A stretch of 64,000 nt of DNA from an uncultured delta proteobacterium (GCA_963707125.1 CAVPOU010000007.1:22333-86332), one strand, 5' to 3'; counted from the first letter of the stretch, positions 5,581 to 64,000 are shown. Translations and numbers: made by a program. Notes: generated from the sequence alone by a model not told the origin.

Positions 5581-5603
5581 GACCGGCCGGAATCAGCCCA
5601 CGG

Positions 5604-6635: not shown

Positions 6636-6718
6636 TTTCTCAGCTCATCGTCGTCTCCTCCATGGAATCAAGCATTCACAAAAGAGCTCTATCCATTAGG
6701 CCTGCTAAGTCTCCCGAC

Positions 6719-7024: not shown

Positions 7025-7179
7025 TGGCTTGTCCTCCTCTTAAGATTTTTGACTAATTTAAAGCCCTTAAACGATAAAGCAAGAGAGATCTATTGAATAC
7101 TTACGCCAATCCTATCGCATGTGAGCCGGTGCATTGATTCACAAAAAGGCACTGGACTTATACTGAATCTCATCTTAAA

Positions 7180-7626: not shown

Positions 7627-7781
7627 TATCAAGAGCCTTCCCTTGATGGTAGTGGAGTTTGCCTGGTCTGCCAAGGGACCGGACAATATTTCAAAATTCT
7701 TCTGGGTTACACTTGACATGCACTTCCGGCGCTTATATTATCTTTATCTTATTAACGTAAACTTCAAAAGGAGGGTGTAAG

Positions 7782-7949
7782 ATGGCGAAGAAGGATGTGC
7801 ATAAGCAAAGATTTGTTTGGGTAAAGGACAAGTCCGGAAATGAGTTTGTGTGCCGAATCGACGACCTGAAGGACCCGAAGAAGGTAGACAAGGAGGACCT
7901 CAAGAACTGCGTCGATGATGCTTCGAGAGCGATCAACATAGGCGACTAG
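7782..7949 (+). CDS. small basic protein, 55 aa (below ORF-track cutoff)
   Basis: AAAGGAGGG lies 5-6 nt before ATG 7782. Translation is MAKKDVHKQRFVWVKDKSGNEFVCRIDDLKDPKKVDKEDLKNCVDDASRAINIGD. It is followed by a clean terminator. Confidence 0.45.
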   Translation: MAKKDVHKQRFVWVKDKSGNEFVCRIDDLKDPKKVDKEDLKNCVDDASRAINIGD

Positions 7950-7986
7950 TTAAAGGTCCACCTGGAAGTCGGGTCAAAAACCATGG

Positions 7987-8014
7987 ACAGGGTCTCTAAG
8001 ACCCTGTTTTTTTT
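7987..8014 (+). terminator. rho-independent terminator
   Basis: ACAGGGTCT / AGACCCTGT stem (7987-7995 / 7999-8007) followed by a T8 run. Confidence 0.6.
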
Positions 8015-8065
8015 GATTCCCCAAGTAGATTTAAAGGCAGTGTCTCAATTATGCCTCTGCAAGTG

Positions 8066-8140
8066 TGTCATTTCGAGCGAATGCGAGAAATCTTGGCGTT
8101 CAGCACAGTTAAAAGATCTCTCCCTTCGGTCGAAATGACA
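8066..8140. repeat. imperfect inverted-repeat (REP/hairpin-like) intergenic element
   Basis: TGTCATTTCGAGCGAATGCGAGAAATCTT pairs with AAAAGATCTCTCCCTTCGGTCGAAATGACA; the arms are complementary apart from a few mismatches. Confidence 0.6.
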
Positions 8141-8212
8141 ACTTATCTCCGGAATACAAACTGCGGCTGGAACTTCAGAACCATGAAGCCGGAAAGAAAG
8201 GGAGGTTGCCGG

Positions 8213-8682
8213 ATGATAATGAAGTCCATGTGTTCGATTTGTATTCTCCTTTTCTTTATAGCGGTTTTTCCATGGCGCAAGCAGGTGAAAAGGGTTCTGT
8301 CGCAGATCTTGATCTCGACGCGCTGCGCTGGAAGAACCGTGTTCTTGTTCTTTTTTCTCCTTCGGAATCCGACGTTTCATTTCAATTGCAAAAGCAGGGT
8401 TTGGCTTCGAGCACAGAAGGGGTGCTCGATCGTGAACTCATGGTCCTGGAAATTATAGAACAAGGGCAGAGCAGGGCCGGCAATCAGCTCCTGTCGCAAA
8501 AATCTGTTCAGAATATCCGCAGGAGACTCGGGGTGCAGGCAGGGCCTTTTCAGGTTTTGTTGATCGGAAAAGACGGTGGCGTCAAGCTCCGTTCCTCAGA
8601 ACCGGTTTCGGTGAAGGACATTTTCGGTCTCATTGACAGCATGCCCATGCGCCAGCAGGAAATGGAGAGCAGGAAAAAATAA
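8213..8682 (+). CDS. secreted DUF4174-like protein; apparent 1-nt indel in a T5 run (8265-8269)
   Basis: GGGAGG (8199-8204) precedes ATG 8213, giving a signal peptide MIMKSMCSICILLFFIAVF. The domain (RWKNRVLVLFSPSE...DRELMVLEI) is in the adjacent frame (track ORF 8206-8682, TTG start). One extra T would give ..FIAVFSMAQAGEKGS. Confidence 0.55.
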
Positions 8683-8702
8683 CCCGTTTGAGAGATTCAG
8701 AA

Positions 8703-10304
8703 CTACGTCCTCATCCTGTGCTCGATCCTCAATAGCCTAGGCTGCTGGAACACATTGAGCCGTCCGGCAAGCCAGGTCCAGGCTGAAAAAGGGACGGTTG
8801 CCCATCCGAACAAACGTTCCTTGGCGGAGACAGGGCCGAGCTCCTTTTCAATGTCCTTCAAGAACACTCTGGCCTCTCTCCTCCGGTCCCCATTAGGTCC
8901 AAAGAGGATCGCAGGATAGAGCCCTGGAAGGGCGCTGCGGACATATCCTTTCATCCGCTCTGCACGACCGTGCAGCAGGGGATTAAAAGAATTTTTCAGG
9001 TTGCGGTAGCCTTCGAACCATGTTCGCACCACGCGGATGAGGGAGGGACCCAGGAGTTCAAAGGCCTTCCGGTAGAGCTCACGCTGAAGATTCTCAAGCT
9101 CTGTTGGAGTGAAATGAGGGTGCTTGAAGTGCATGGAGAACCCATCGAAGGTTCGGTAGTCAGGGTGGTCAAGGTATTCTGGAAGATAGCGCCCCTCGGC
9201 AACGACCTGGCGGTGAAGGGGCGTGCCCGGAAAAGCGAAATAGATGAGGATTTGCCATAGAGCCGGACCGAGCTCCGTGAGCTTTCTGAAATCCTCCAAG
9301 ACCCGTGACCGGTCCTGGAAGGGAAACCCGACGATCATGGAGGTGAGGATCGCCACACCGCGCGATTGCAGGCCTTGATAGAGTGCGTCGAGGTCCTCTC
9401 CCTTCAACTTGTCATATCCGGATCCAGACCCCTCGAAGGCAGTCCACAGAATGTCAAATCCCATTTCCGCTATTTCGTCTGCCGTGAACTGGGACAGACC
9501 TCTCACACTCCCAAACCCCATGATTGAAAGGGGCTTGCCGCCTTCCCGCACGCAGGCAAGAAATTCCCTCGCTCTTTTGGCGTGGATGAAGAAGTCTTCG
9601 TCGATGATGATGAAGCCGCTCAATTCATCACCGGCATCCCTTGCCTTTTGTTCCATGAGAAGGATGGTTTCATAGAGCTGCCGGCCGCTTGAAACAAAGG
9701 GAACGTATTTGCGATTGAAAAAGTGGGACGTGCAGCAGAAGTCGCATCCATTGGGGCACCCGAGACCGCCCGTGATATGAGCCACTTTCGTGTTCAGAGG
9801 GTAGGAAAAGACCCGCGGCGATTGGATGGGTGCGTAGGGGTGGCGGATGGGGCGTTCAGGGTTCTCGCCCAGGAGCCTTCGCATAAAGCCGATGCCTTCT
9901 TCCCTGCAGATGAAATTCCCGAAAGGAGCAAGCTCATCATCAGGAAGGACCGTGCCATATCCGCCGAGGACGATCTTCGATCGGGGTGAGTACTTCCGTA
10001 TGAGGTCTGCCATGCGTCGGAGTTTGTGGAAGGTGGCAACGACGAAATTGATGCCAATGTAGTCGTAGTTTCCGGTCTGGACTTCACGGAGGAATTCGTG
10101 CTCCGAGGGATAGTGGAGAACCACAGACGGGGCGTCGATGTTCTCTGCGATATAGTCAAGCCCCCAACAGCGGATCACCTGGCGATAGCTGAAGATGCCC
10201 TGGCTGCGTGTCACCTGAGCGTGAAAGAGTTCAGCGCCCACGGAATCCCCTTCGCCATTTCCCCCAAAGGGACGGCAAACGGTCGTGAGCAGCAAATTCG
10301 GCAC
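8703..10304 (-). CDS. B12-binding-domain radical SAM protein
   Basis: The N-terminal cobalamin-binding-type domain (IVLGGYG) is followed by GGLGCPNGCDFCC (CxxxCxxC). Confidence 0.85.
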   Translation of the reverse strand: MPNLLLTTVCRPFGGNGEGDSVGAELFHAQVTRSQGIFSYRQVIRCWGLDYIAENIDAPSVVLHYPSEHEFLREVQTGNYDYIGINFVVATFHKLRRMADLIRKYSPRSKIVLGGYGTVLPDDELAPFGNFICREEGIGFMRRLLGENPERPIRHPYAPIQSPRVFSYPLNTKVAHITGGLGCPNGCDFCCTSHFFNRKYVPFVSSGRQLYETILLMEQKARDAGDELSGFIIIDEDFFIHAKRAREFLACVREGGKPLSIMGFGSVRGLSQFTADEIAEMGFDILWTAFEGSGSGYDKLKGEDLDALYQGLQSRGVAILTSMIVGFPFQDRSRVLEDFRKLTELGPALWQILIYFAFPGTPLHRQVVAEGRYLPEYLDHPDYRTFDGFSMHFKHPHFTPTELENLQRELYRKAFELLGPSLIRVVRTWFEGYRNLKNSFNPLLHGRAERMKGYVRSALPGLYPAILFGPNGDRRREARVFLKDIEKELGPVSAKERLFGWATVPFSAWTWLAGRLNVFQQPRLLRIEHRMRT

Positions 10305-10374
10305 CTTAAACGACCTCCTCCTAAAAGATTGAATCGCCTTGAAAAAGAATTCTTATAACAAAACAACCGACAGC

Positions 10375-10600
10375 TCAAGAGCGCGCATGCCGAAGGGCAT
10401 CGGCCAGCTTTTGATAGATGACCAGCAGCTCGTCCCCCGGGTTCATCGAGCGGTCGGGGCTCCAGATGGCAGCGATCTCCTTGTCCTCAATTTCCAGGCG
10501 CCGGCAGAGCAGCCGGGCCTGGTGCCAGGTCGGCAACCAGACCAGTTTCTCGCAGATGGCTTCGATGCTGCCGAATATGCTGATGAATCGCGGTAGACTC
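10375..10600 (-). other. coding-looking small reading frame without a canonical start, upstream of the radical SAM gene
   Basis: Reverse frame ..LSLPRFISIFGSIEAICEKLVWLPTWHQARLLCRRLEIEDKEIAAIWSPDRSMNPGDELLVIYQKLADALRHARS*. An ATG (MKLFILS*) sits one frame off, across T-runs. Confidence 0.25.
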
Positions 10601-10699
10601 AGGATAAAATAAAGAGTTTCATGGTTCCGCTAAAACTGATAGCTATCATTTGTGTATTGGTGCGGCAATAGCAAACATGATAATATATCCATTTAGGGC

Positions 10700-12374
10700 G
10701 TGCGCTCTATGAGTTATTTCAGGAAAGAGCTGGCGAGACGGCAGGTGAAGGCAGGCGGCCGGCGCTGGCTTTTTGTCCCCTATGATCAACTGACTGATGA
10801 GATTGGGCCTCTCTCCCGGGAGGACCCAAGGAGCCTAGGCATCGTCCTCGTGGAGAATCCGTGGAAGGCGGCCCGGCGGCCCTATCACAAACAGAAACTC
10901 GCTCTTGTTATTTCCAACCTCCGCCATTTCGCCCTTGAGCAGGCCGATAGGGGCGTGGCCGTCCGGCGCGTGATTGCTGAAGGTCCCTATGCCAAAGCTC
11001 TCGAATCCCTCATTCCCGAGTTGGGCACACTGAGAGTCATGGTGCCTGCAGAAAGGGAACTCAGGTCGGATCTCGCGAGACTCGCGAACCAAGGATCTCT
11101 CCAGTTCCTTCCCCATGAGGGATGGCTTTCAACCTCCGAACAGTTCAGAGAAAGCGATACTAAAGCCCCTCCCTGGAAGATGGACAAGTTTTATCGTTTT
11201 ATACGGCGTGCCACCGGCGTGCTCATGGAGGGTGAGAAACCGGTTGGGGGAAGATACAGTTTTGATGTGGAGAACAGGCTCCCATGGCATGGTAAACCGG
11301 CTTCGCCCGAGCCACCTTCCTTTCCGAGAGATCCCATCAAGGAGGAGGTTGGAGAACTTGTTAGGAAGTTCTTCGCCCGTCATCCAGGCCAACTGGACCT
11401 GGATGCTCTCCCCGCCACCAGAAAGGATGCTGAAAAACTCTGGTCTTGGGCCAAGGCAGAGTGCCTGCCCCTTTTCGGTCCCTACGAAGACGCCATGTCC
11501 CATAGGTCCGGGAGCCTTTTCCACACCCGCATCTCATCCCTTCTGAACATCCACAGGCTGTTGCCATCCCGCGTAATCTCTGATGTGGCGGGCATGAGTT
11601 TGCCACTAGGAAAGCAAGGAGGGTTTCATCCGACAGATCCTGGGGTGGCGGGAGTTTGTCCGCCATGTTCATGAGGCCACCGATGGTTTTCGCAAACTGC
11701 CTGAAGGCAGGACCCCGGTTGAAAAAGCGCCCGGCGATGGGGGCTATCAGAAGTGGGCTGGAGAAATCTGGGGACTTGGGAAAAAGGCCAAGGGACCGGA
11801 TGGGGGCGCAGCCCCATGTGCCCTTAGCTGTGACACTCCGCTGCCTCCTGCGTATTGGGGGGAGCGGTCAGGGCTGGCCTGCCTGGACACCGTGGTTTCG
11901 GATGTTTGGACCGAAGGATACAGCCACCACATCACGCGGCTCATGATCCTTTCCAACCTGGCGACCCTGCTTGACGTGAGCCCAAGGGAACTCACGGACT
12001 GGTTCTGGGTCGCATACACCGATGCCTATGATTGGGTGGTGGAGCCCAATGTCCTTGGCATGGGTACCTATGCCTTGGCCGGTCTCATGACCACGAAACC
12101 CTATGTGTCGGGCGCGGCTTACATCAACAGGATGAGCGATTACTGCGGCCTCTGCGCTTTTGATCCCAAGACCGATTGCCCATTCGCCTCGCTCTACTGG
12201 GCATTTCTGGCAAGACACGAAGCGGCGCTCAAAAACAATCCCCGTCTCACGATGCCCATGGCCTTCCTTCGCAAACGAGGGGCAAGTCGAAAGAAAAAGG
12301 ATCAGGAAGTGTACAGAATAGTCAGGGATATCCTCGTGAAAGGGGAGCGCATCAGTCCAAAAAGCCTTTCATGA
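10700..12374 (+). pseudogene. cryptochrome/photolyase-related protein (COG3046, FeS-BCP / bacterial (6-4) photolyase-like), frameshifted near 11609
   Basis: The N-terminal part WLFVPYDQLTDEIGPLS... ends out of frame at ..MSLPLGKQGGFH. The next frame continues ..SKEGFIRQILGWREFVRHVHE...GYSHHITRLMILSNL...DYCGLCAFDPKTDCPF (CxxC-x7-C) to 12374. Deleting one G at 11609/11610 fuses the two parts. Confidence 0.75.
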
Positions 12375-15133: not shown

Positions 15134-15326
15134 GGGATCCCTTCTGTGGTTCGTTTTTTGATTTTAGTTGGTGTGATACAAAGTCCCTTTTCGGAGCCGC
15201 AGTATAGATGATTTTGGAATGGTTGTCATTAGGTACCCAGATTTGTCTACTCCGACACGCCTGATAGAAGATTTGAGTTGCAATCGGGCCTCTGAAGCAC
15301 CACCCGCGCGCTTTCCAATACGACAC

Positions 15327-15617
15327 TCATCGGAAAGAAATGCAGCAGGTCGGAGTTGGAACGGTTCTCGCCACAGCAGAAGAGGCCAGAAAGGTTTCAA
15401 GTTGAAGCTTATCCATGTTACTGGTTCTAAGGATTGCTGGAGCTTCCAGCGAGGTTTTGAATGAGTGGAAGGAGTTGAACATCAGGGGGTGGAAGTTTGG
15501 CGTTGGCGCACCGTTCAGCCACGAACATTGAAGCAGGTGAAGGGTTATGGACTTGGTCTCATAGTCGTGATCGATTTGAAGCAGGTGTTTAACGGCCTTC
15601 ACCTCCATGCCCAGTTC
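15327..15617 (-). pseudogene. partial duplicate of the 3' half of mutT plus its downstream flank
   Basis: Same-orientation copy of 20375-20717. It translates to ..VKAVKHLLQIDHDYETKSITLHLLQCSWLNGAPTP, matching the MutT sequence (one L/F mismatch). It lacks a ~52-bp block and the 5' half of the gene. Confidence 0.8.
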
Positions 15618-15678
15618 GAGGTCTGCCCCCCTACTTGATAGGAACGGTCTTTCCGGGTCAGTGGGAAGGGAACAAAGT

Positions 15679-17070
15679 TCACGAATGGAGTTGGTCCCCG
15701 TGGAGCAGGAGCACATCCTCTTCCTTCCCCAGTTCCAGCATCCCATCGGTAAAACCGCCCTTGCTGAACAGCATGAAACGGCTTGTGCGGTCACCATTAT
15801 GCCAGTCAACCAGATGCGATTTCCTTACGAGCTCTTCATACACATTCACACCAACTCTCTTTTTGCTCCATTTGCACTCTCCGAAGTACACAGTCTTTGT
15901 TTCCTCATCCAACGCCACCAGGTCTACTTCCTCATTTCTTGACCACCACTTGCCTATGACCGTGAACTGCATTTGCCCCTCTTCCATCATGCGGGTGCAT
16001 ATCTCCCTGCAGGCAGCCTCGTAAGCCTGCGATAGGTGCTGTTCCAGAGATCCCCTGATGAGCTTTAGGACATAGTCGACCTTGCCTATTTCAATGCGGC
16101 TTTTGTTGGGGAACACGTACTTGAACCAAAAAGTGAAGAACTTGTCCTGGATACCATAAAGCCCTTGCTTGCTCTTTTCAGGATTTTTTTCAGTTACGGG
16201 TATCTCCTTTTTCACGAAACCGAGGCTTCTGAGAATATCCACATAGCGTGACACGTGGCTCTTCTCAAACCCCGTTTCGTTAATCATCTCCGAGATCTTT
16301 CTTTTTCCCTGGGAGATTGCCTTAAGGAGGGCAAAGTAGTTTCTCGGCTCCCGCAGTTCCTCCATCAGCACATAGTCCACCTCGTTTGAGAAAAAGGTTC
16401 CCTTTTCGAGTACGAGCAAGCGAATGTTTTCCAGGATGTCAAGTTCAGGATTGACCTTCTCCAGGTAAGCTGGAATCATACCAAAGACTGCATAGATCGC
16501 CATCAGCTCATCAAAGGATTTCCTGGGGAAGAACTCGTTGAGGCTGTCAAAGGGCATTTCCCTGACTTCCAGGGAGCCTGTTCTCCTCCCGTAGAGGGGG
16601 GCCTTGTAGAGGAGCACCTCCTTCTCCATCATGCCGATGCTGGAACCCATCAAAATAAGAAAAATGTTGCTGTGCTTCAGTTGTTCGTCGATTCCTTTCT
16701 GGAAGATGGACGACACGGCCCTGTTGGAGTTCACAAGATAGGGGAATTCATCGATAATGACCACCAATCTGCCCCTTTCTTTCTCCTTCATATAACGAAA
16801 AACCTGCTCCCAATCCTTGAATCCGGAATCCATCAGGATGGTGTCACGGAAATGCTCCCCAATGACGCGGCCAAGGCTTTTCAGCTGCTCGGTTTCGGCA
16901 ATGCTGTCGGCCAGGAAGTAAATCGCTTCCTTGCCCTCGATAAATTCTTGAACGAGCCTTGTCTTTCCGACACGCCTCCGCCCATACACAGGGATGAACT
17001 GAAATCCAACACCTTTGAAGGCCCTTTCCATCACGGCAAGTTCACTTTTTCTGTCCACGAATCTCATCAT
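15679..17070 (-). CDS. AAA-type ATPase, archaeal-ATPase (Arch_ATPase) + DUF234 family
   Basis: FVDRKSELAVMERAF...IPVYGRRRVGKTRLV (Walker A), LVVIIDEFPYL (Walker B), a winged-helix-like middle region, and a C-terminal DUF234-like WWSRNEEVDLVALDEE. Confidence 0.85.
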   Translation of the reverse strand: MMRFVDRKSELAVMERAFKGVGFQFIPVYGRRRVGKTRLVQEFIEGKEAIYFLADSIAETEQLKSLGRVIGEHFRDTILMDSGFKDWEQVFRYMKEKERGRLVVIIDEFPYLVNSNRAVSSIFQKGIDEQLKHSNIFLILMGSSIGMMEKEVLLYKAPLYGRRTGSLEVREMPFDSLNEFFPRKSFDELMAIYAVFGMIPAYLEKVNPELDILENIRLLVLEKGTFFSNEVDYVLMEELREPRNYFALLKAISQGKRKISEMINETGFEKSHVSRYVDILRSLGFVKKEIPVTEKNPEKSKQGLYGIQDKFFTFWFKYVFPNKSRIEIGKVDYVLKLIRGSLEQHLSQAYEAACREICTRMMEEGQMQFTVIGKWWSRNEEVDLVALDEETKTVYFGECKWSKKRVGVNVYEELVRKSHLVDWHNGDRTSRFMLFSKGGFTDGMLELGKEEDVLLLHGDQLHS

Positions 17071-17080
17071 CCCACCTTAG

Positions 17081-17115
17081 AGTATAATCGCGATTAGTAT
17101 AATCGTAATTATACT
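17081..17115. promoter_or_regulatory. operator-like repeats upstream of the ATPase gene
   Basis: AGTATAATCG is repeated at 17081 and 17096. AGTATAAT-CGTA-ATTATACT (17096-17115) has 8-nt inverted arms. It lies 11-45 nt upstream of the start at 17070. Confidence 0.3.
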
Positions 17116-17353
17116 TATTGACAAGTTCTTTGAGGAAGCTTCGCAGTGACCGGTAACCGCCCGGTGGAACCTGAAGGAGGTGCTGCCGCCTGCACGTGGA
17201 AAGAAGATGGTCACTGAAGACAACGTGGACGAAGAGAGCAGCGCCGGTCAAATCGATTGGTACTACCGCCAGTCCCGCGCCACCTGATCAAAGGACTTCC
17301 TTAAGAAGAATACACAAAACGAGCGGTCAGAAGGGCAGGTGACTCATCCATCC

Positions 17354-17408
17354 GTGGTGCCCGGACGAAGATACCTGGGTTCCAGTTCAGACTCCACGAT
17401 ATGGTATC
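17354..17408. repeat. 55-bp repeat, copy A (copy B at 17940-17994)
   Basis: GTGGTGCCCGGACGAAGATACCTGGGTTCCAGTTCAGACTCCACGATATGGTATC compared with copy B gives 46/55 identical by my count. Confidence 0.7.
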
Positions 17409-17725
17409 ATCATGACCCGTCAAACCCCGATCCCAAATGGGACGCACCATAGGAAGGAGAAAAAATGGAGCCTGCGCCATGAGAAATCAGGGCAGGAGCG
17501 AGGAGAGTTGTTCGCCGTTTTCGATGGCGTCGAAAGCGACCCCAAGGAAAGGGAGGCAGAACAGCAGATTGCCGACCTCATGACTGTTGAAAGAGGAGAT
17601 GAATCGCATCTCTGAAGAAGTCGGTGATCGGGGTGAAATGTATCTGGTCCTCATCATAGCGATCGGCACCGCCATAGAGCAGAAAGGCTGTGGCCTTTGG
17701 GTAGGATATAATTCTGGCGTACATG

Positions 17726-17752
17726 CCGCCATTTTATATAAAAAAATGGCGG
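17726..17752. other. perfect 10-bp hairpin with AT loop
   Basis: CCGCCATTTT-ATATAAA-AAAATGGCGG. Confidence 0.6.
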
Positions 17753-17939
17753 TATCAATGCCAAAATGTCTTGTGAAAAGGGGAGTTCCGCGCTGTCCCA
17801 CTTCGGCCGAACAGGCTATCCCAGCGCAATGGGTTGAAGCCTTTGGCGAAGGTGATGCTCCTGCGCCCCCGCGCGCTGGGCGTCACGCGAACCGAAAAGA
17901 CCGTCGGAGGCGGGGCATACTGTGCAAAACTCGTCCTCA

Positions 17940-17994
17940 GTGGTGCCCGGATGAAGGGCCCTGGGTTGCAATTGAGACTCCATGACATGGTATC
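17940..17994. repeat. 55-bp repeat, copy B
   Basis: GTGGTGCCCGGATGAAGGGCCCTGGGTTGCAATTGAGACTCCATGACATGGTATC. Confidence 0.7.
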
Positions 17995-18555
17995 CATTCT
18001 AGACTCTTTGTCGTGCCAGGGGCGCTTTCGCATGCCATGGTAAATCGCAATCGACCCTCTACCTGCCCGCTGGACTGACTTCATTTGGTTATCGTCGGTG
18101 GATGATCGCCCCGATCTGCAACGGACTTGGATCAGTAATCGCTCGTTCTTGAGCGACCCCATATACCCATCTGACCTGCTCCCATGAGCCAAGAAATGGA
18201 AATCGAGAGATGCCACCTGGATGGTGACCTCCGCCTTTTTTCGCTCAAAACGCCACCTCTCAACAAATCTCGGGCTTGCTCCTCCTTACGTTCACGGCAC
18301 ACCATACCAGCTCGGACGCCCTCGTCCACCGCAATCCTCCAGTCCTCAACATGCTGTGCCAAGTGTGCGCTTGACACACAACGGCGGATTCCCCTATACT
18401 CCGCCACAACTGAAGCAAGTTCTTATCACCTCACCTCACTGACAGACTGCCCTGGGCTTAAACGCATCGAGGCGAGCGCACCGTCGCCGAAAAGCCTTGC
18501 ATAGAGTCCCGGATTCCCTTAAAGAGAAAGCACATTCTTACAGAGGAGTGCAGAG

Positions 18556-19056
18556 ATGAAAGTACTGGTGGCTTATTATTCGGACAGTGGAAACACAGAG
18601 AAAGTGGCCAAAGCCATTTACGAGGAGCTCAGTTTTGTGGAAAAGAGGCTGACCTCCATCAAGGAGCAAGACCCTGTGAGCGACTGCGATGTCCTATTTC
18701 TGGGTTTTCCGGTTCAGAACCACAGCATTCCGGTGGGGGTTGAAAAGTTCCTGAAAAAAATCCCTGCTGGAAAGAAAATCGCTTTATTCGCTACCCATGG
18801 CTCGTTTCGAGGCGGGGAGTTCGCCATGACGGCCTTCTATTACGCGATGAGCCTCACGGTCAAACAGAAGCTCCTCGGAACCTTTGGATGCCGTGGAGAG
18901 GTGAAACCGCGGGTTCTGGAAAAACTGATGAAACGGCCTCAGGACCGGTATTGGGCCATGGAGGCTCAAAGTGCGGCCGGACACCCGGATGAGGGAGATC
19001 TGGCTGACGCGAGGAAATGGTCCTGGTGGATGCTCATGAAGGCGCAATCCCTCTAG
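18556..19056 (+). CDS. flavodoxin-family protein
   Basis: MKVLVAYYSDSGNTEKVAKAIYEEL is an FMN-binding T/S-x-T-G-x-T-type N-terminus. GAGGAG lies upstream of the ATG. Confidence 0.75.
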   Translation: MKVLVAYYSDSGNTEKVAKAIYEELSFVEKRLTSIKEQDPVSDCDVLFLGFPVQNHSIPVGVEKFLKKIPAGKKIALFATHGSFRGGEFAMTAFYYAMSLTVKQKLLGTFGCRGEVKPRVLEKLMKRPQDRYWAMEAQSAAGHPDEGDLADARKWSWWMLMKAQSL

Positions 19057-19085
19057 CCGGAGAGAACTGTTCCCGTTCCCGCCCC

Positions 19086-19751
19086 TCATCCCGCTGAAAG
19101 TTTCTGGAGCAGGACGCTCGTGGTTCTCTCTGTTCTTTCCTGTTCCAGAATCTTCTGGCCTTCCAGATCCAGCACGTAGAAGACGTCGGCCACCTGGTCG
19201 CCCTTGGTGGCGATCTTGGCGATCCGGATGTCGATGCCGAGGGTGAAGAGGGCGCGGGTGATCCGGTAGAGGAGCCCGATGCGGTCGTCGGCGAACCCCT
19301 CGATGAGAGTGAAGAAGTCGGAGGAGCCGTTGTCTACGAGCACACGAGTGTGACGGGCCGGGGCTTTCCTGCGGAAGAGAAGGGAGGGTTCGGCTTTCTG
19401 CTCCAGACGCTCTGAGAGGGAGAGCGTGGCGTCAAGGGTTGCGGCGAGATCGTCTTTGATCCTTCCCCAGATTTCCTCGGGATGGAGAGGGTCCAGCGGA
19501 GGGGTCACCGTGAAAATGTCCACCGCCGTGCCGTCGCACCAGGTGTAAATGCGGGCGGAGAGGATGTTGATGTTGTTGAGAGCCATGACGCCCGTGACGT
19601 CAAAAAACAGTCCGGCTCTGTCTTGGGCCAGGAAGGTGACGTCATAGGTTCCGCTGGCCGGCGCGGCAGCGGCTTCAAGGCAGAAGGCGTTTTGGATCCC
19701 CTGGGCGGTTGCCTCCCGGAGTCGGCGGTGAAGGGTGATGTGCTGGACCAT
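19086..19751 (-). CDS. stand-alone double-ACT-domain protein resembling the C-terminus of GlnD (PII uridylyltransferase); probable gene fragment
   Basis: VTFLAQDRAGLFFDVTGVMALNNINILSARIYTWCDGTAVDIFTV and FTLIEGFADDRIGLLYRITRALFTLGIDIRIAKIATKGDQVADVFYV are two ACT units. The frame is closed by TAG 13 codons upstream of the Met, so no NT/HD domains are present. Confidence 0.65.
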   Translation of the reverse strand: MVQHITLHRRLREATAQGIQNAFCLEAAAAPASGTYDVTFLAQDRAGLFFDVTGVMALNNINILSARIYTWCDGTAVDIFTVTPPLDPLHPEEIWGRIKDDLAATLDATLSLSERLEQKAEPSLLFRRKAPARHTRVLVDNGSSDFFTLIEGFADDRIGLLYRITRALFTLGIDIRIAKIATKGDQVADVFYVLDLEGQKILEQERTERTTSVLLQKLSAG

Positions 19752-19768
19752 GGCGGCCTGAGGCTCGC

Positions 19769-20259
19769 ATGGGTCGGAGCGCCGGTCACGTTTCTACGGG
19801 AGCCCGGCAAGTGGGTAAAGACAAGAGAGTGGCGCAGCGACTTGATGGAGGCCATGGAGGCATGGACTTGCCCCAGGGACTGCTCCACGGCCAGAAGTAC
19901 AAGAAGTGTGGCCTGCCCCTCCACCAAGAGTCAAGTGCCCAGCAGCAGAGTGCAGGACCTTTCACTTTAGTACCCGGGTTCACTGAGCTTGACCGCTTAT
20001 CCAACAGGGTGGTGGATCTCATCGAAGAGGGGCGCCTGGATGAGGCAGAAGCCGTTTGCCATGAGCTCTTGTCACGCTATCCTGACCAGATCGATGGCAC
20101 GGAAAGGCTGGCGGAAGTCTATGAAGCTCGGGGTGAGAAAAAAAGGCCGCGCAATACTATCGCAAGGCGGCCGAATTTGCACAGACATCTCCCGGGTTTG
20201 ATCAGGAACTCATTGATCGGTACCTCTCGCAGTCAAAGCATTTAGAATCCCAAGAATGA
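19769..20259 (+). pseudogene. degenerate SEC-C-motif / TPR-like small protein, frameshift at A7 run (20138-20144)
   Basis: ..GQKYKKCG.. resembles the SEC-C motif but lacks its cysteines. ..RLDEAEAVCHELLSRYPDQIDGTERLAEVYEARGEKK then continues sensibly only in the next frame (AAQYYRKAAEFAQTSPGFDQELIDRYLSQSKHLESQE*, stop 20257-20259). Confidence 0.4.
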
Positions 20260-20374
20260 ACTGGAATAAGAAGAACTATAAGGAATACCAATCCGCAACA
20301 TAAACAAACTCGCCACATAACGATACGCATACTTCAATACGTGATGCCCTTGGCGGGATTGCAGGATGTCTCCT

Positions 20375-20717
20375 TCATCGGAAAGAAATGCAGCAGGTCG
20401 GAGTTGGAAGGGTTCTTGCCACAGCAGAAGAGGCCAGAAAGGTTTCGAGTTGAAGCTTGTCAATGTTGCGGGTTCTGAGGAGTGCCTGAGGTTCGAGCGA
20501 GGTTTTGAATGAGTGGAAGGAGTTGAACATCAGGGGGTGGAAGTTGATAGTTGGCTAGTTCCCCAGGCTTCACCCATCGGAGTTCATCACAACCAATAGG
20601 CGTTGGCGCACCGTTCAGCCACGAACATTGAAACAGGTGAAGGGTTATGGACTTGGTCTCATAGTCGTGATCGATTTGAAGCAGGTGTTTGACGGCCTTC
20701 ACCTTCATGCCCAGTTC
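20375..20717. repeat. direct repeat, copy 2 (partner 15327-15617)
   Basis: It covers 85 bp downstream of mutT plus its last ~86 codons, aligned by eye to copy 1. Confidence 0.8.
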
Positions 20718-58145: not shown

Positions 58146-58260
58146 GAATCGGAAAGACTCCCTTTCCCCACAGACGGCGCCCTGCCGACAACCTGTCTGG
58201 TAACAATCGTGTTGGGCGCATGGCTCAACAAAAAAACGGCTACAGTTTATTTGCCCTGTC

Positions 58261-58322
58261 ATTCCCGCGGAGGCGGGAATCCAGTGATCTCCGGTTCTTC
58301 TGGACTCCCGCCTGCGCGGGAG
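58261..58322. repeat. twin-hairpin REP-like element
   Basis: ATTCCCGC-GGAG-GCGGGAAT (58261-58280) and CTCCCGC-CTGC-GCGGGAG (58305-58322). Confidence 0.6.
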
Positions 58323-58518
58323 CGACGGTGGTGCATTTCCTTCTCTCACTTTGACAAAGAAGTCAAGTTGTCGGAGAGCCTCTCCAGTCTGATTGGATGA
58401 GTTGGGCAACAAGATCGCCAAAGGTCTCACGTTTAAACCGCAGCAGGATAAAATTAAAGAGTTGACACGTGTTGGTGGCTAATATAGATAATTAGTTTGA
58501 AATATCAATCAATTTTGT

Positions 58519-58605
58519 GCGGAAGTGGCGGAACTGGTAGACGCGCTAGGTTCAGGGTCTAGTGTGAGCAATCACATGGGGGTTCAAGTCCCCCCTTCCG
58601 CACCA
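58519..58605 (+). tRNA. tRNA-Leu (anticodon CAG), encoded CCA
   Basis: Acceptor GCGGAAG/CTTCCGC, anticodon loop TTCAGGG, long variable arm TGTGAGCAATCACATG, T-arm GGGGTTCAAGTCCCC, then A-CCA. Confidence 0.9.
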
Positions 58606-58732
58606 CCGAAAATTCAGGCAGAGATCAAGGCGATTGCGGCTTTTTTTGTCGTGGCGATCGCGGGGCGGACGAGCCCGTCCTACCGGAAAGGCAGAGACTC
58701 TCCGGCGCATTGGGTCTTATGCGACTTTTCTT

Positions 58733-59235
58733 TGACTCGGGAGATCAGGAGGGGTACTTGCCTGCGATGTAATTGCTCAACTGTTTGATGAGCTCTTCCT
58801 GCTCGGAGACAATGGATTTCACCACGTCACCGATCGACACCACGCCGACGAACTGGTTGTTTTCAAACACAGGGAGGTGCCTCACGTGTTTCCCTGTCAT
58901 CAGGATCATGCACTCCTCGACACTGTTATCCGGTTTGACCGCATACATTTCAGATGCCGGGGTCATGATTTCTTCTACCTTGGTCTCTTTGGAAGTCTTT
59001 CCCTTGAGGATCACCTTTCTAGCGTAGTCTCTCTCTGAAATAATCCCGGCCACTTTGCCATGATCGTCGATGACCATGAGCGCACCGATTTGCTTTTCTC
59101 CCATCAATTTCAGCGCGTCATAGACCGCGACATATGGCAAAATCGACCAGATCTCCTTTTTCTTGTCCTTCAAGACCTCTTTCTCGCTTTTCATCATTCA
59201 CCCCCTTTTTGTTTTCATCCATCACCGAAGCCCCA
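58733..59235. repeat. 503-bp direct repeat, copy 1 (partner 61994-62496)
   Basis: Aligned by eye end to end. The offset is exactly 3261 bp. Confidence 0.85.
58745..59197 (-). CDS. CBS-domain-pair protein, copy 1
   Basis: Two CBS motifs (ALMVIDDHGKVAGIISERD; LPVFENNQFVGVVSIGD). Confidence 0.8.
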   Translation of the reverse strand: MMKSEKEVLKDKKKEIWSILPYVAVYDALKLMGEKQIGALMVIDDHGKVAGIISERDYARKVILKGKTSKETKVEEIMTPASEMYAVKPDNSVEECMILMTGKHVRHLPVFENNQFVGVVSIGDVVKSIVSEQEELIKQLSNYIAGKYPS

Positions 59236-59341
59236 CGCCATGTTGCCCTCTTTTTCCCTTTGACACACCACTCCAAAATCCCTACACTCGCCTTCGCCTG
59301 AAGCACCTTCTTATCATCAAATCCTGCCGGGAGAAGACAAC

Positions 59342-61996
59342 ATGATTCCTTTAAGAGATAGGCTTTCGCATCTCACCTACCGCCAAGCCAGTAAGCTCCT
59401 TGGGCCCGAAGGAGAGCAGCTGATCAGGCAGGGCGGAAAATATGACTTCAACATCGAGGAGCAGGTCGCCTGGGGAGAGGATCTCTTGAGGATCAATCTG
59501 GGAGACGCCCTGGTCACCTTCTCCATGACACCGGGAAGACCCAGAACCCTTGATTTCACATGCAGCAAATGCACCAAGGCGTGCGAACATCTTGGGGCCG
59601 CCTTTTCTCTCATTCTTGAGGAAAAACTGGCGCTGGGGCTTTCCGCTCCTCCTCCTGAAAAAGTGCCCGTCGAAAGCCTCAGCGACGAGGAGCTTGTCAG
59701 TCTGGCCATCGAGGACAGGGCTGAGCGGGCGAAGACGGAAAAGATGTCTCTGAGACCCACAGATGGACACGAGCTGTGGGCGGACTATACGGTGACCAAT
59801 CGTTCTTCAGGAAAGACCTATCGCGTCGCTCTGAGAGGATGGGAGAGGGGAGACTCGTACTGTTCGTGTCCGGATTTTCGAAAGAGCACCCTGGGCACCT
59901 GTAAACATATTCTCTATGCTCTCTCAGCGGTGAAGAAAAGGTTCCGGAAATCCGCCCTGGAGAAACCCTATCAGGTCACAGCCCTCGCCGTTCACCTCCG
60001 CTATGGCGAAGAGACGGAGCTCCGCGTCCTCGTCCCGGATGGGCTTGACAGTCAAGTCATGGCCCTTCTCCATCCTTTCATGAATCGTCCGATCAAGAAG
60101 GTGAGAGATCTTGTCGAATGTATCAGGCAAATCGAATTCCTGGAGCACGACGTCACGGTTTATCCGGATGCCGAGGAATACATCCACCGGGCCCTCTACC
60201 GGGATCGGATAGAGAAGAAGGTGGCGGAAATCCGGAGAGATCCTAAAATTCATGATCTGCGAAAGACCCTTCTCAAGGCCGAACTCCTCCCCTACCAGCT
60301 TGATGGTGTCGCTTTTGCGGTTGGCGCCGGAAGGGCGGTGCTTGCCGATGATATGGGCCTCGGCAAGACGATCCAGGGAATCGGGGTCGCCGAGATGCTC
60401 TGCCTGGAGGCGGGAATTTCGAGAGTTCTTGTCATTTGTCCTGCGTCCCTGAAATCTCACTGGCAGCAGGAGATCGAGCGCTTTTCAGGTCGGAGCTGTC
60501 AGCTCGTTCTCGGATCAGCAAAGGAAAGGACCGCTCAATATGGGAACGACTGTTTTTTCACCATCTGTAACTATGAACAGGTCCTCAGGGATCTTCTCGC
60601 CATTGAAAGGACGAAGTGGGATCTCATCATCCTGGATGAGGGACAGAGGATCAAGAACTGGGAGGCCAAGACAAGCCAGGTGATCAAGGCCCTAAAGTCT
60701 CCCTTTGCACTGGTTCTTTCCGGAACCCCCCTTGAAAACCGATTGGATGAACTCTTTTCCGTTGTCGAGTTTATCGATGATCGGCGTCTCGGGCCTGCCT
60801 TCCGCTTCTACAACCGCTACAGGGTCGTGGATGAGAAAGGGAAAGTGCTTGGGTATAAGAATTTGGATGACCTCAGAGAAAGATTGAAGCCTGTGCTTCT
60901 TCGCCGGACACGAAAGACGGTGATGACGGAATTGCCTTCGAGGACAACCGAGGTCAGAAGAATCCCTCCCACAGAGGAGCAACTCGACCTTCATCATGGC
61001 CAGATGAAGATCATCAGCAAGATCATCTCAAAGCGATATATCTCCGAGATGGATCTTCTCCGTCTGCAAAAAGCCCTTTTGCTCTGCCGGATGGCGGCGA
61101 ACAGCACCTTTCTGGTCGATAAGGTTGCGCCCGGATATTCGAGCAAGCTCGTGGAATTTGAGAATCTCATCGACCAGTTGATCGAGGAGGAAGATCGAAA
61201 GATCGTTCTCTTTTCCGAATGGACGACCATGTTGAATCTGATCGAGCCGATCCTTTCAAAACGAAGGCTCAACTTCGTGAGACTCGATGGTTCCGTCCCG
61301 CAGAAGAAAAGACAGGGATTGATTTCCCAGTTTCAGAGAGAACGCAACTGCAAGCTCTTTATCACGACCAATGCCGGTTCAGTGGGGCTCAATCTTCAGG
61401 CTGCAAACACAGTGATCAACGTCGATCTTCCGTGGAATCCCGCCGTTCTGGAGCAGAGGATCTCCCGTGTCCATCGGATGGGTCAGAAGAAACCGGTCCA
61501 GGCTTTTCTCCTGGTGACGGAAGAGACTCTGGAAGAAAAACTCCTGGGGACCCTTTCCGCTAAGCATGCGCTCGCCATGGCCGCTCTTGACCCTGATTCG
61601 AAGGTGAAGGCGGTGGACCTTGCGAGCGGCATGGAGGAATTGAAAAGACGACTGGAAGTTCTTCTGGGGACCAAACCGGATGCAGCTCTCGACGAAAGCA
61701 GGAAAAGGGAAGTGGAAAAGGAGGCCGAAGGACTTGCCCGGAAAGAGAAGGTAGCAGCAGCCGGCGGACAGCTCTTTGGAGCAGCGTTTGCCTTTATCGG
61801 GGAAATATTCTCACAGAAGGAGGAGACTGAAGAGGCCGCTCAGATGGCTGACCTTTTCAGGAAGCGCCTTTCCGAGTGTATGGAAAGAGGCGAGGATGGC
61901 CACCTGAAAATGACCATCACCCTACCGGACGAATCTGTTCTCAACAATATGGCCAAGTCGCTTGCTCAGGTTCTGGGTTCGGCAAAGAACTTGTGA
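59342..61996 (+). CDS. SNF2-family helicase with N-terminal SWIM zinc-finger(s)
   Basis: CSCPDFRKSTLGTCKHI (CxC..CxH), LADDMGLGKT, ILDEGQRIKN, and C-terminal helicase motifs (TNAGSVGLNLQAANTVINVDLPWNPAVLEQRISRVHRMGQ). Confidence 0.85.
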   Translation: MIPLRDRLSHLTYRQASKLLGPEGEQLIRQGGKYDFNIEEQVAWGEDLLRINLGDALVTFSMTPGRPRTLDFTCSKCTKACEHLGAAFSLILEEKLALGLSAPPPEKVPVESLSDEELVSLAIEDRAERAKTEKMSLRPTDGHELWADYTVTNRSSGKTYRVALRGWERGDSYCSCPDFRKSTLGTCKHILYALSAVKKRFRKSALEKPYQVTALAVHLRYGEETELRVLVPDGLDSQVMALLHPFMNRPIKKVRDLVECIRQIEFLEHDVTVYPDAEEYIHRALYRDRIEKKVAEIRRDPKIHDLRKTLLKAELLPYQLDGVAFAVGAGRAVLADDMGLGKTIQGIGVAEMLCLEAGISRVLVICPASLKSHWQQEIERFSGRSCQLVLGSAKERTAQYGNDCFFTICNYEQVLRDLLAIERTKWDLIILDEGQRIKNWEAKTSQVIKALKSPFALVLSGTPLENRLDELFSVVEFIDDRRLGPAFRFYNRYRVVDEKGKVLGYKNLDDLRERLKPVLLRRTRKTVMTELPSRTTEVRRIPPTEEQLDLHHGQMKIISKIISKRYISEMDLLRLQKALLLCRMAANSTFLVDKVAPGYSSKLVEFENLIDQLIEEEDRKIVLFSEWTTMLNLIEPILSKRRLNFVRLDGSVPQKKRQGLISQFQRERNCKLFITTNAGSVGLNLQAANTVINVDLPWNPAVLEQRISRVHRMGQKKPVQAFLLVTEETLEEKLLGTLSAKHALAMAALDPDSKVKAVDLASGMEELKRRLEVLLGTKPDAALDESRKREVEKEAEGLARKEKVAAAGGQLFGAAFAFIGEIFSQKEETEEAAQMADLFRKRLSECMERGEDGHLKMTITLPDESVLNNMAKSLAQVLGSAKNL

Positions 61997-62496
61997 CTCG
62001 GGAGATTAGGAGGGGTACTTGCCTGCGATGTAATTGCTCAACTGTTCGATGAGCGCTTCCTGTTCGGAGACAATGGATTTCACCACGTCACCGATCGACA
62101 CCACGCCGACGAACTGGTTGTTTTCAAACACAGGGAGGTGCCTCACGTGCTTCCCTGTCATCAGGATCATGCACTCCTCGACACTGTTATCCGGTTTGAC
62201 CGCATACCTTTCAGATGCCGGGGTCATGATTTCTTCCACCTTGGTCTCTTTGGAAGTTTTTCCCTTGAGGATCACCTTTCTAGCGTAGTCCCTCTCTGAA
62301 ATAATCCCGGCCACTTTGCCATGATCGTCGATGACCATGAGCGCACCGATTTGCTTTTCTCCCATCAATTTCAGCGCATCATAGACCGCGACATATGGCA
62401 AAATCGACCAGACCTCCTTTTTCTTATCCTTCAAGACTTCTTTCACGCTTTTCATCATTCACCCCCTTTTTGTTTTCATCCATCACCAAAGCCCCA
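61994..62496. repeat. 503-bp direct repeat, copy 2
   Basis: It begins at the TGA stop of the SNF2 gene. Confidence 0.85.
62006..62458 (-). CDS. CBS-domain-pair protein, copy 2
   Basis: Differs from copy 1 at 5 of 150 residues (E5V, I16V, M->R, E->A, K->E). Confidence 0.8.
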   Translation of the reverse strand: MMKSVKEVLKDKKKEVWSILPYVAVYDALKLMGEKQIGALMVIDDHGKVAGIISERDYARKVILKGKTSKETKVEEIMTPASERYAVKPDNSVEECMILMTGKHVRHLPVFENNQFVGVVSIGDVVKSIVSEQEALIEQLSNYIAGKYPS

Positions 62497-62592
62497 GAAA
62501 AGTGCTATACTACAAAGGTAAAGGAAACAGCAGGCAAGAACATTTCTGAGCGGCCTCTTGCCATGAAGATGAAAGTGGCGTAAATATAAGTG

Positions 62593-62719
62593 GCAGGTTG
62601 CTGAAAAACGCCCATCTACCGCGTTGCCCTCATCCTTCGTCATTGCGACGTACTTCCATGTACGTCTCACTCCTCGTGATTTCGGTCGCCTTGTATCTGA
62701 GCGTTTTTGAGCAACCTGC
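62593..62719. repeat. 127-bp element with 19-bp terminal inverted repeats
   Basis: GCAGGTTGCTGAAAAACGC ... GCGTTTTTGAGCAACCTGC (18/19 complementary). Related GAAAAACGCCCA motifs occur near 47190 and 27445. Confidence 0.6.
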
Positions 62720-62863
62720 AACGAGAGTCTTTTGCTGAAACCTGTTACTACACAGGCCTGCAGCACCTCTGCACAATGAGAAGAGTTCGCGGCCGTTCAA
62801 AAGGCTTGAGTTGGTTGAGGCCAAAGGCCTGCATTGGGAAAAAGAGAAAAGAGGCATACGAAC

Positions 62864-63133
62864 ATGAAGGAACCAAGAGATGTCGGGGTAGCCATCCATG
62901 ACCGATTTTTTACGCTCGATGTGGGCATTGATGACGAAGAGCTGGTCATGAGCCTTTTCGCCGGACTGGCTCTGTATGTTCGAAAAGGAAACTCCATCAA
63001 GGTCAGACAGTCCTACGTCACCTTCTCAGGTTCGCAGGAAATCATGACCAAGTTCATTTCCAAGACAGAACAGGTAGGGGAGTGGAGCAAGGAAACAAAG
63101 CAGCTTCTCTCTGCACTGAAAAAGAAAAGGTGA
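62864..63133 (+). CDS. hypothetical protein
   Basis: Track ORF 62834-63133 (TTG start); ATG 62864 gives MKEPRDVGVAIHDRFFTLDV... No family recognised. Confidence 0.3.
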   Translation: MKEPRDVGVAIHDRFFTLDVGIDDEELVMSLFAGLALYVRKGNSIKVRQSYVTFSGSQEIMTKFISKTEQVGEWSKETKQLLSALKKKR

Positions 63134-63174
63134 TCCGGAAATTCAATCGAACCTGCGGTGAGGAGACTTTGATT

Positions 63175-63558
63175 ATGGCTATTCTCGGCGACGATGAGAT
63201 CCTTGCAAGAGTGCACAGGTTCAAACTTTTTCGGAATGAGGGCAATCTTTACATGGATGTCTATGAAGCGGTCCTCGGAAAGCCTCCCCACAAATTCATT
63301 GCCGTCCCGAATCTCCTGCTCAAGGAATCAGAGGAGAAGTTTTTCGGCGTAGGGGACACCAAAAAAGATGCTTTGACAGACTGTCTGAAAAAGATCAGAG
63401 CGATCCCGATTCAAGAGATCGTCCCTACTGATGACTTAGAGGGAACCGAAATAGAAAGAAAGACTACGGAATACCTGGAAAAAACCTCAAGGAAGACGTC
63501 CTCCATCTGGAAGCTTCCGAAATTGTTTGCCAAAGGCCCAAAAGAAAATGACGAATGA
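63175..63558 (+). CDS. hypothetical protein
   Basis: GAGGAG precedes ATG 63175, giving MAILGDDEILARVHRFKLFRNEGNLYMDVYEAVLGKPPHKF... No family recognised. Confidence 0.4.
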   Translation: MAILGDDEILARVHRFKLFRNEGNLYMDVYEAVLGKPPHKFIAVPNLLLKESEEKFFGVGDTKKDALTDCLKKIRAIPIQEIVPTDDLEGTEIERKTTEYLEKTSRKTSSIWKLPKLFAKGPKENDE

Positions 63559-63743
63559 CAGCCGGGCCGGGGATCGGCAGAACCGTGGACCGGCGCAAAC
63601 TTGCCTTTGAAAATGCGGAGGGGAGCTTGAAATGCTTGAAAACAATTACCACTATTGATAAATAATGTGCCGTGCGGCGCTGGTTGCCGCTTCAATGAAG
63701 GGTTGAGCTTATTATGAGCCTTAAAGAAGGGATGGTGTATGAG

Positions 63744-64000
63744 ATGTCGAGAAAGAAAGGAATATTCAGAAAAACAACCTTGATCGGGTGGACCGTGATT
63801 TGCCTGATTGCAGGCTTTGGAATGGCGACGCTTCTGGATCCGATTTCAAATCCAGCGGCACAGACCCCACTATCTCCGTCGGGTGTCCCTTTGTCCTTTG
63901 CGGATCTTGCCAAGAAAGCGAAGAATTCCGTGGTGAACATCAGTACCTTGAAAGTGATCAAGGGAAGGGGGCAAGCGCCGATGCCGTTCGGTCCAAATGA
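63744..64000 (+). CDS. HtrA/DegP-family serine protease, N-terminal part (runs off window)
   Basis: My own translation gives MSRKKGIFRKTTLIGWTVICLIAGFGMATLL (signal/anchor), then ..PLSFADLAKKAKNSVVNISTLKVIKG, typical of the DegP/DegQ N-terminus. Upstream ATGs at 63714 and 63732 are possible starts. Confidence 0.6.
   Translation, partial: MSRKKGIFRKTTLIGWTVICLIAGFGMATLLDPISNPAAQTPLSPSGVPLSFADLAKKAKNSVVNISTLKVIKGRGQAPMPFGPN

Follow-up and report, generated by a model that had tools for sequence, protein, structure and literature searches.

The window, a 64,000-nt stretch of DNA from an uncultured delta proteobacterium (GCA_963707125.1, CAVPOU010000007.1:22333-86332), contains at positions 58733-62496 a gene for an SNF2-family ATPase that is bracketed by two direct repeats, each with a gene for a CBS-pair protein, immediately downstream of tRNA-Leu. 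Comparison with public metagenomes reveals that the slot between tRNA-Leu and CBS is strain-variable in this uncultured Thermodesulfobacteriota species, and that the locus is an ordinary structural polymorphism, neither a mobile element nor a recognisable defence system. For the two-CBS arrangement we consider, on balance and from comparison of sequences, a real mosaic probable: homologous recombination between two chromosomes of different gene order (B-like and E-like, as defined below) would have kept both CBS alleles.

The same locus, from RibF and tRNA-Leu to HtrA, was found in at least five layouts across public metagenomes, which we describe with the symbols t (tRNA-Leu), sp (the 127-bp spacer), c (CBS unit), S (SNF2 segment, 59239-61983) and d (downstream genes):

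Type A: RibF, t, sp, c, d, without SNF2 (contigs L007-L011, L092 and L098; dominant in run X1); the commonest layout.
Type B: t, sp, c, S, d, without a second CBS (X25, X26, X29 and X39; metatranscriptomes X31-X33).
Type C: t, sp, c (CBS1), S, c (CBS2), d (the window alone).
Type D: partner-gene remnant, S (ending AWKQ*), spacer, c, d (L001, L062, L074 and L104).
Type E: t, short insert, S, c (CBS2), d (L103 and L045).

Mixed layouts within one sample are usual (A and D in X1; B and D in X25, X29 and X39). An earlier note, made from the sequence of the window alone, had proposed to search for a variant with one CBS and no helicase and to compare the tRNA-Leu neighbourhood in relatives. The variant exists and is the commonest form, and the neighbourhood comparison, with its alternative layouts and a two-CBS form confined to the window, agrees with the note's view of a recent, strain-specific rearrangement rather than a conserved arrangement.

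An ungapped comparison established the repeat pair as two direct copies of 503 bp (58733-59235 and 61994-62496), offset by 3261 bp and 97.0% identical, whose similarity breaks off sharply at both edges of either copy. The 15 mismatches are scattered evenly, with no sign of recent gene conversion. The earlier description of these repeats holds in its other particulars as well: open reading frames (ORFs), Pfam and alignment confirm a complete 150-aa CBS-pair gene on the minus strand of each copy, with products 5 residues apart, copy 1 lies just downstream of tRNA-Leu(CAG), with 127 nt between them, and copy 2 starts at the helicase stop codon, 61994 being the T of TGA. The features of the locus are as follows:

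58519-58605, plus strand: tRNA-Leu(CAG), left limit of the diverged tract (ARAGORN; Rfam tRNA, 51 bits).
58606-58732, unstranded: spacer 'spW' between the tRNA and CBS1, in the diverged tract; 10 differences from the spacer of L007-L011.
58733-59235, unstranded: repeat copy 1, 503 bp, 15 mismatches to copy 2.
58745-59197, minus strand: CBS1, 150-aa CBS-pair protein, allele of a diverged lineage (Pfam CBS, two domains).
59224-59239, unstranded: junction of the CBS upstream region with the SNF2 segment, 12-13 nt microhomology.
59260-59288, plus strand: promoter-like site for SNF2, TTGACA-17-TACACT (consensus scan, 10/12).
59342-61996, plus strand: SWIM-SNF2 ATPase, 884 aa, accessory gene (Pfam; full-length homologues).
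61984-61993, unstranded: ten bases, AAAGAACTTG, remnant of a longer SNF2-CBS spacer (comparison with L074 and L104).
61994-62496, unstranded: repeat copy 2, 100% identical to type A contigs L009 and L010.
62006-62458, minus strand: CBS2, 150-aa CBS-pair protein, the species' resident allele (Pfam CBS, two domains; exact protein on five JGI contigs).

Two CBS domains are found in each of the small ORFs (Pfam E = 8e-22 and 2.4e-21). CBS1 and CBS2 differ by 5 residue replacements, 8 synonymous changes and the stop codon (TGA/TAA); this count, which the earlier note had also suggested, gives a dS of 0.09 and a dN/dS of 0.16 (Nei-Gojobori), indicating purifying selection on both copies, that is, working genes that are more than a few generations apart. 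CBS2 is 100% identical to the single CBS of type A, and the five JGI contigs with the exact CBS2 protein all carry RibF, tRNA-Leu, CBS and the downstream genes, with SNF2 in none of the five. The CBS1-like counterpart is the CBS of type B. The exact CBS1 protein has no record in a database look-up; a 354-nt contig from metatranscriptome run X33 (B-type population; 58823-59176) differs from CBS1 at 3 positions, and the CBS1 allele is therefore real. With L074 as outgroup, 9 derived changes fall in CBS1 and 5 in CBS2. At 3 of the 15 diagnostic sites the CBS of L103 has the CBS1-type base, which points to allele recombination in the population. In metatranscriptome contigs, CBS depth is 3-4 times that of SNF2 (X32, 58597-59182; X33, 58823-59176), and one X32 contig extends from CBS across the spacer as far as the tRNA gene's end, suggesting read-through or a shared terminator region.

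Alignment of the window to the other layouts divides it into three parts: (i) species-typical flanks, (ii) a 630-bp tract of a diverged lineage (58606-59235) and (iii) an E-type block. On the left, approximately 2 kb upstream of the tRNA differ from the window at 1-5 positions in L007-L010 and at 16 in L011. Differences between the window and the A-type sequence start at 58609, just past the tRNA, with 10 in the spacer and 15 in the repeat, and tRNA-Leu is the likely left homology anchor. The diverged tract comprises the spacer, CBS1 and 38 bp upstream of CBS1, and its divergence at neutral sites is about 8%. From 59239 on the window is E-type. From 61994 rightward the type A contigs (L007-L011, L092 and L098) are 99.4-100% identical to the window, L009 and L010 at 100%, and 3261 bp are missing in all of them.

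The E-type block is documented by two contigs. L103 (24.7 kb) carries RnfC, LPG synthase, RibF, t, 540 bp of other DNA, S, CBS and HtrA, and its identity to window 59239-64000 is 99.54%. In L045, D-type DNA precedes S, which matches with 5 mismatches over 2854 bp; the contig continues past the stop codon into CBS2, so that the right-hand SNF2|CBS2 junction is independently confirmed. Over the SNF2 gene, nucleotide identity is 99.8% to L045 and 99.5% to L103. A second CBS upstream was looked for in the D- and E-type contigs and none was found.

Both contigs show further features. In L103:4751-5290, between tRNA-Leu and SNF2, a 100-aa HicB-like ORF precedes a 41-bp piece of the tRNA-CBS spacer fused to the SNF2 segment, another independent deletion or replacement scar in the tRNA-Leu slot. 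RibF and an LPG-synthase-like gene are called as a single 651-aa product in L103:2304-4259, probably owing to a single-base consensus error in a long-read assembly. Upstream of SNF2, L045:143-1046 contains a frameshifted Mrr-type restriction endonuclease gene with a topoisomerase-type C4 zinc finger.

On the right side of S, the comparison also accounts for the position of copy 2. The spacer between SNF2 and CBS measures 368 bp in L074 and about 125 bp in L104, ending in AACGAACTTG / AACGGACTTG right before the CBS unit. A deletion of roughly 358 bp of this spacer left the ten bases AAAGAACTTG, which is why copy 2 starts at the stop codon; the remnant recodes the last three SNF2 codons (AWKQ* to AKNL*), and L045 and L103 share the same deletion with the window.

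On the left side of S, the type B contigs (X25, X26, X29 and X39) have CBS, its 38-bp upstream region and S contiguous, and in X26 and X31-X33 the end of S (…CTGGAAACAATAATCCGG) joins 62468 without a second CBS. Lineages that differ by about 12% in the adjoining S 5′ region have the CBS|SNF2 junction at one and the same position, and the junction is therefore old. Directly 5′ of the SNF2 segment, the window reads ACCGAAGCCCCA and the D-type contigs ACCGCAGCGCCCA; this microhomology of 12-13 nt suggests an illegitimate, homology-facilitated origin of the junction. BLAST homology to the window starts at 59224 in L072 and L090, at 59233 in L104, and at 59239-59240 in L001, L045, L062 and L103.

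These relationships suggest the following course of events, whose direction and mechanism we infer, as we do the presence of both copies on one real molecule. The oldest layout that can be reconstructed (type D) would be tRNA-Leu, a variable insert, a helicase-sigma4 gene, the SWIM-SNF2 gene, a spacer, CBS and the downstream genes. Type E would have arisen from type D by deletions that left remnants of the partner gene, or nothing of it, and fused the SNF2 stop to the CBS unit. In further lineages, CBS would have come to lie upstream of SNF2 as the single copy (type B) or to stand by itself without SNF2 (type A). The CBS|SNF2 junction, which is older, probably first formed by illegitimate, homology-facilitated recombination at the microhomology. 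A B-like chromosome (t, sp, CBS1, S, d) would then have undergone RecA-type homologous recombination with E-type DNA (S, CBS2, d); the SNF2 gene (2.7 kb) and the downstream region would have served as homology arms, and the E-type CBS2 would have come in as a heterologous insert while the resident CBS1 stayed. The population contains both parental layouts, and the parts of the mosaic find their closest match in different parents (E: L103 and L045; B: X25, X26, X29, X39 and X31-X33). Since this course needs one event between two parents of observed types and accommodates an S that is E-type from its first base, it is the most economical. A crossover inside SNF2, with a switch from B-like to E-like within the gene, was considered and rejected: from 59240 the window is E-like throughout, apart from a private base at 59319.

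Several observations weigh against a mosaic chromosome. CBS1 and CBS2 were not seen on one molecule in any independent contig or read; the best metagenome run contains a fraction of 0.38 of the copy 1 words, and none contains more than 0.77 of the locus words. The window's exact junction of the CBS1 upstream region with an E-like SNF2 5′ end is absent from about 15 runs, and the sampled B-type junctions all have an SNF2 5′ region about 12% diverged from that of the window. The diverged tract gives way to E-type sequence at the very boundary of what the layouts share (59236-59240), and a mixed-strain consensus would look alike. The main rival is a strain-chimeric long-read assembly, in which the shared SNF2 was collapsed, the left branch taken from a B-like strain and the right branch from an E-like one, so that the repeat bracket would exist in silico only. 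Several layouts commonly share one sample (X1; X25, X29 and X39), the tract boundary is the limit of the shared sequence, and both window junctions are natural but lie on separate molecules in the data examined. We nevertheless rate a chimera as unlikely, albeit a serious possibility. SNF2 and its 5′ region are purely E-type (0 of about 15 B-type variants in 59240-59362) and free of indel damage; a mixed consensus would need a dominant E strain, yet the left branch chosen is non-E. A distance of 3.3 kb is short for long reads, and spanning reads should normally resolve the path. Real mosaic CBS alleles, moreover, occur in the population, as in L103 with its CBS1-type bases.

An alternative in which both copies are real but old would have the window retain an ancestral two-CBS layout (C0: tRNA-Leu, CBS, SNF2, spacer, CBS), formed once at the microhomology; deletion of the second CBS would have turned it into B, and recombination between the repeats into A. 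The age of the CBS|SNF2 junction fits this, type B corresponds to C0 minus the spacer and second CBS, and the even spread of the 15 differences does not indicate recent gene conversion. Yet the block from SNF2 to CBS2 is 99.5-99.8% identical to E-type sequence and, from CBS2 onward, 100% identical to L009 and L010, while CBS1 is 3% diverged, so the block is recent on the right side. The A-type spacers are unlike that of the window, and the sampled A types are thus not descended from the window's C form. With no other two-CBS contigs found, we regard retention of C0 as quite improbable.

The two mechanisms that the earlier note had offered, Campbell integration of a circular CBS+SNF2 molecule by crossover in CBS and in-place tandem duplication of a [CBS-SNF2] unit with loss of one helicase, are largely refuted. 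The insert is indeed bracketed by direct repeats, a single-CBS 'empty' form exists, and direct repeats of part of mutT enclose a second accessory patch of the window that has no integrase, so that such layouts recur. A recent duplication, however, would make the copies sister sequences, and they are not each other's closest relatives: CBS2 is wholly A-type and CBS1 nearest to B-type, both carrying derived changes (9 and 5) against the outgroup. Campbell integration predicts reciprocal chimeras and an unchanged spacer; in their place, all 15 sites are A-type in copy 2 and non-A in copy 1, and the spacer, which lies outside the repeat, is diverged from the empty site at 10 positions from the first bases past the tRNA. 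The SNF2|CBS2 junction is explained by simple deletion of the pre-existing 368-bp spacer, and SNF2 already lies between tRNA-Leu and CBS in single-CBS strains.

In the favoured mosaic, the outcome would be two expressed-looking CBS alleles in direct orientation, which RecA could recombine, deleting SNF2. Direct repeats of 503 bp at 97% identity should permit RecA-dependent deletion of CBS and SNF2, and the note's suggestion that the repeats allow loss of the helicase is in this respect plausible.

The SNF2 gene itself encodes an ATPase. The ORF matches SNF2-rel_dom with 148.5 bits (cut-off 24.9) and Helicase_C with 90.3 bits (cut-off 23.5) in Pfam. Of the earlier assignment as an 884-aa SNF2 protein with SWIM-type fingers on the plus strand, the ATPase stands; the SWIM match (PF04434, residues 171-197) is just below the Pfam cut-off (18.6 versus 19.6 bits, E 1.3e-3), with the CxC-x10-CxH motif YCSCPDFRKSTLGTCKH readable in the translation, and the upstream 'finger' CSKCTKACEH is non-canonical. 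The window's exact SNF2 protein has no record in a database look-up. Full-length homologues at 74-97% identity are found in many metagenome-assembled genomes of Thermodesulfobacteriota, and at 55-65% in Planctomycetota and Verrucomicrobia; the protein belongs to a widespread stand-alone SWIM-SNF2 family. A dN/dS of 0.10-0.25 indicates purifying selection on the gene. The promoter-like site lies within a segment conserved in L001, L045 and L103, and contigs of three metatranscriptome runs cover SNF2, with CBS deeper (B-type populations), a coverage that may include DNA carry-over. In run X1, word depth is 121-151 in the flanks and 12-28 in SNF2, so that most cells of the species there are without SNF2 and the gene is dispensable.

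Comparison with relatives reveals what the window has lost. All SNF2 relatives at 80-92% protein identity have, 34-70 bp upstream on the same strand, a gene for a helicase (ResIII/DEAD) of roughly 700 aa with a C-terminal sigma-70 region 4 domain. Instances of this helicase-sigma70_r4 gene together with SNF2, on the same strand, are:

L100:1452-3560, with SNF2 at L100:3631-6285.
L002:5757-7967.
L072:876-3163.
L076, L086, L101 and L102.

Only the 3′ end of the partner gene is left in L001, L045, L062 and L104 (the last ~37 codons being recognisable in L001 and L045), and nothing of it in the window. The window SNF2 is the orphaned, dispensable half of a helicase-sigma4/SNF2 pair. The statement of the earlier note that no partner genes are visible is hence correct for the window and incorrect for close relatives, in which the helicase-sigma70_r4 gene is directly upstream. 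Helicase-sigma4 and SNF2 may form an undescribed two-gene module; the helicase-sigma70_r4 protein matches known defence proteins weakly (the MzaA sigma region and PbeA). We think it very improbable that the pair is an undescribed two-gene system for mobile-DNA conflict or transcription in the tRNA-Leu slot, with the CBS repeats serving as a switch for reversible loss and regain of the orphaned SNF2.

Further upstream in relatives, type I restriction, Fic, Mrr-like, DUF4143 ATPase and toxin-antitoxin genes occur. This region is a variable, defence-island-like neighbourhood and provides no evidence of a defence role of SNF2. The defence role on which the earlier note had speculated finds no backing: the protein reaches no curated cut-off of a defence family. 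The NCBIfam models (DrmD, ZorD, DpdE and RapA) all score far below their cut-offs, with 171 versus 950 bits for DrmD, 144 versus 1500 for ZorD and 114 versus 500 for DpdE, the other two scores being 149 versus 610 and 84 versus 576. Beside the window SNF2, no obligatory defence partner genes are present, the neighbours being the CBS genes, the tRNA and two small ORFs without a PADLOC match. We rejected the defence reading of SNF2, as PADLOC and NCBIfam match the helicase core only.

A tRNA-targeting integrative island was rejected as well. In 58606-62496 there is no integrase or recombinase, the only ORFs with family matches being the two CBS genes and SNF2. The tRNA 3′ end is not repeated (its last 24 nt occur once in the window with 3 mismatches allowed), and the D- and E-type contigs lack a second upstream CBS. 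The tRNA is the sole Rfam match, and a loose-end sequence past the tRNA in run X3 matched none of the compared loci.

Three further features lie in the flanks:

58168-58379, unstranded: polymorphic 212-bp repeated element upstream of tRNA-Leu; L098 and run X1 have 31 nt instead.
62587-62839, unstranded: polymorphic 253-bp insertion with an element resembling a miniature inverted-repeat transposable element (MITE) with terminal inverted repeats (TIRs), core about 62594-62719 (126 bp).
62834-63558, plus strand: two small conserved genes of 99 aa and 158 aa in the right flank, syntenic in the A-type contigs, L074, L103 and L104.

The 212-bp element has a metagenome word depth above 700-11000, contains palindromes of the type CATTCCCGCGGAGGCGGGAATCC and adds 95 spurious codons to the N-terminal side of the RibF ORF; the true RibF has 312 aa. 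The TIR element that had been noted to follow copy 2 is borne out by its inverted arms (62590-62619 and 62693-62722; 30 nt, 83% complementary). With a word depth of 400-5700 against 10-150 in the flanks, its core ranks with the most highly repeated sequences of the sediment metagenomes that were examined. The 253-bp insertion is missing in seven runs (X1, X4, X26, X32, X33, X34 and X39), where 62586 is joined to 62840 (or 62841) with a single G between; L011, L074 and L104 lack it as well, and L007, L008, L098 and L103 have it. Its inverted terminal repeats, high copy number and variable presence among strains make the element MITE-like; at the empty site the sequence is ...GTAAATA-G-AAAAAG..., and no clear target-site duplication surrounds the 253-bp segment. 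The 99-aa and 158-aa genes have no Pfam, NCBIfam or PADLOC match.

Elsewhere in the window, a second accessory patch occupies 15327-20717. It contains ATPase_2/DUF234, flavodoxin, ACT-domain and TPR genes and lacks an integrase, and the 3′ half of mutT is repeated directly on either side of it. Its depth in X1 and X2 equals that of the flanks, and contigs that skip it occur too, with joints from 15323 to 20375 and from 15501 to 20602. Its style of recombination may match that of the CBS locus.

If the two-CBS layout is real, the locus would be a natural example of alternative gene orders that recombine to place two alleles in direct orientation around an accessory gene, which is thereby primed for loss, and RecA-dependent deletion of CBS and SNF2 should be possible. 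It also cautions that a repeat-bracketed gene beside a tRNA may mimic a mobile or defence element, yet be neither, and that such layouts need single-molecule confirmation in long-read metagenome assemblies of mixed strains. Bacterial SWIM-SNF2 proteins are poorly understood, and the conserved helicase-sigma4 partner offers a lead on their function that can be tested.

Compared with known systems, the window SNF2 resembles stand-alone bacterial SWIM-SNF2 ATPases in its two-lobed core with all motifs and its C-terminal helical tail, and has an N-terminal region with a CxC...CxH motif whose SWIM match is borderline. Among solved structures the nearest is the Sulfolobus solfataricus SNF2/Rad54-like ATPase core (PDB 1Z63), which matches residues 310-773 (E 4e-57), whereas the N-terminal 300 and C-terminal 130 residues are without a solved or curated counterpart. 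The ATPase cores of DISARM DrmD, Zorya ZorD, Dpd DpdE and BREX BrxH align to the protein (PADLOC E down to 3e-73), and, as with defence SNF2 helicases, its relatives adjoin type I restriction, Mrr-like and toxin-antitoxin genes; the difference is that the match covers the core only and that the obligatory partners are missing here. The locus resembles tRNA-adjacent genomic islands in that the slot immediately 3′ of a tRNA gene is variable and its cargo differs among strains, but its edges are deletion and recombination scars rather than att sites, with neither an integrase nor a duplicated tRNA 3′ end.

False duplications in strain-chimeric contigs place two diverged alleles in the same orientation on one contig, with haplotype-shared sequence between them. 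The window differs from these in that both junctions are found in independent short-read data and that there is no mixed signal between the copies. Homology-facilitated illegitimate recombination (HFIR), as defined in PMC3240628, is a related concept, and the effector-immunity arrays of the Vibrio cholerae type VI secretion system (T6SS), in which modules are displaced sequentially and extra copies retained (PMC5361080), give a comparable outcome. Here, in distinction from both as they are described there, the retained and incoming genes would be alleles of one housekeeping-type CBS gene, in an event read from the sequence alone. What the locus would share with them is incoming DNA that homology anchors on one side or both and that adds a heterologous segment while the resident genes stay, leaving same-orientation duplicates or orphans, together with a short microhomology at the non-homologous joint.

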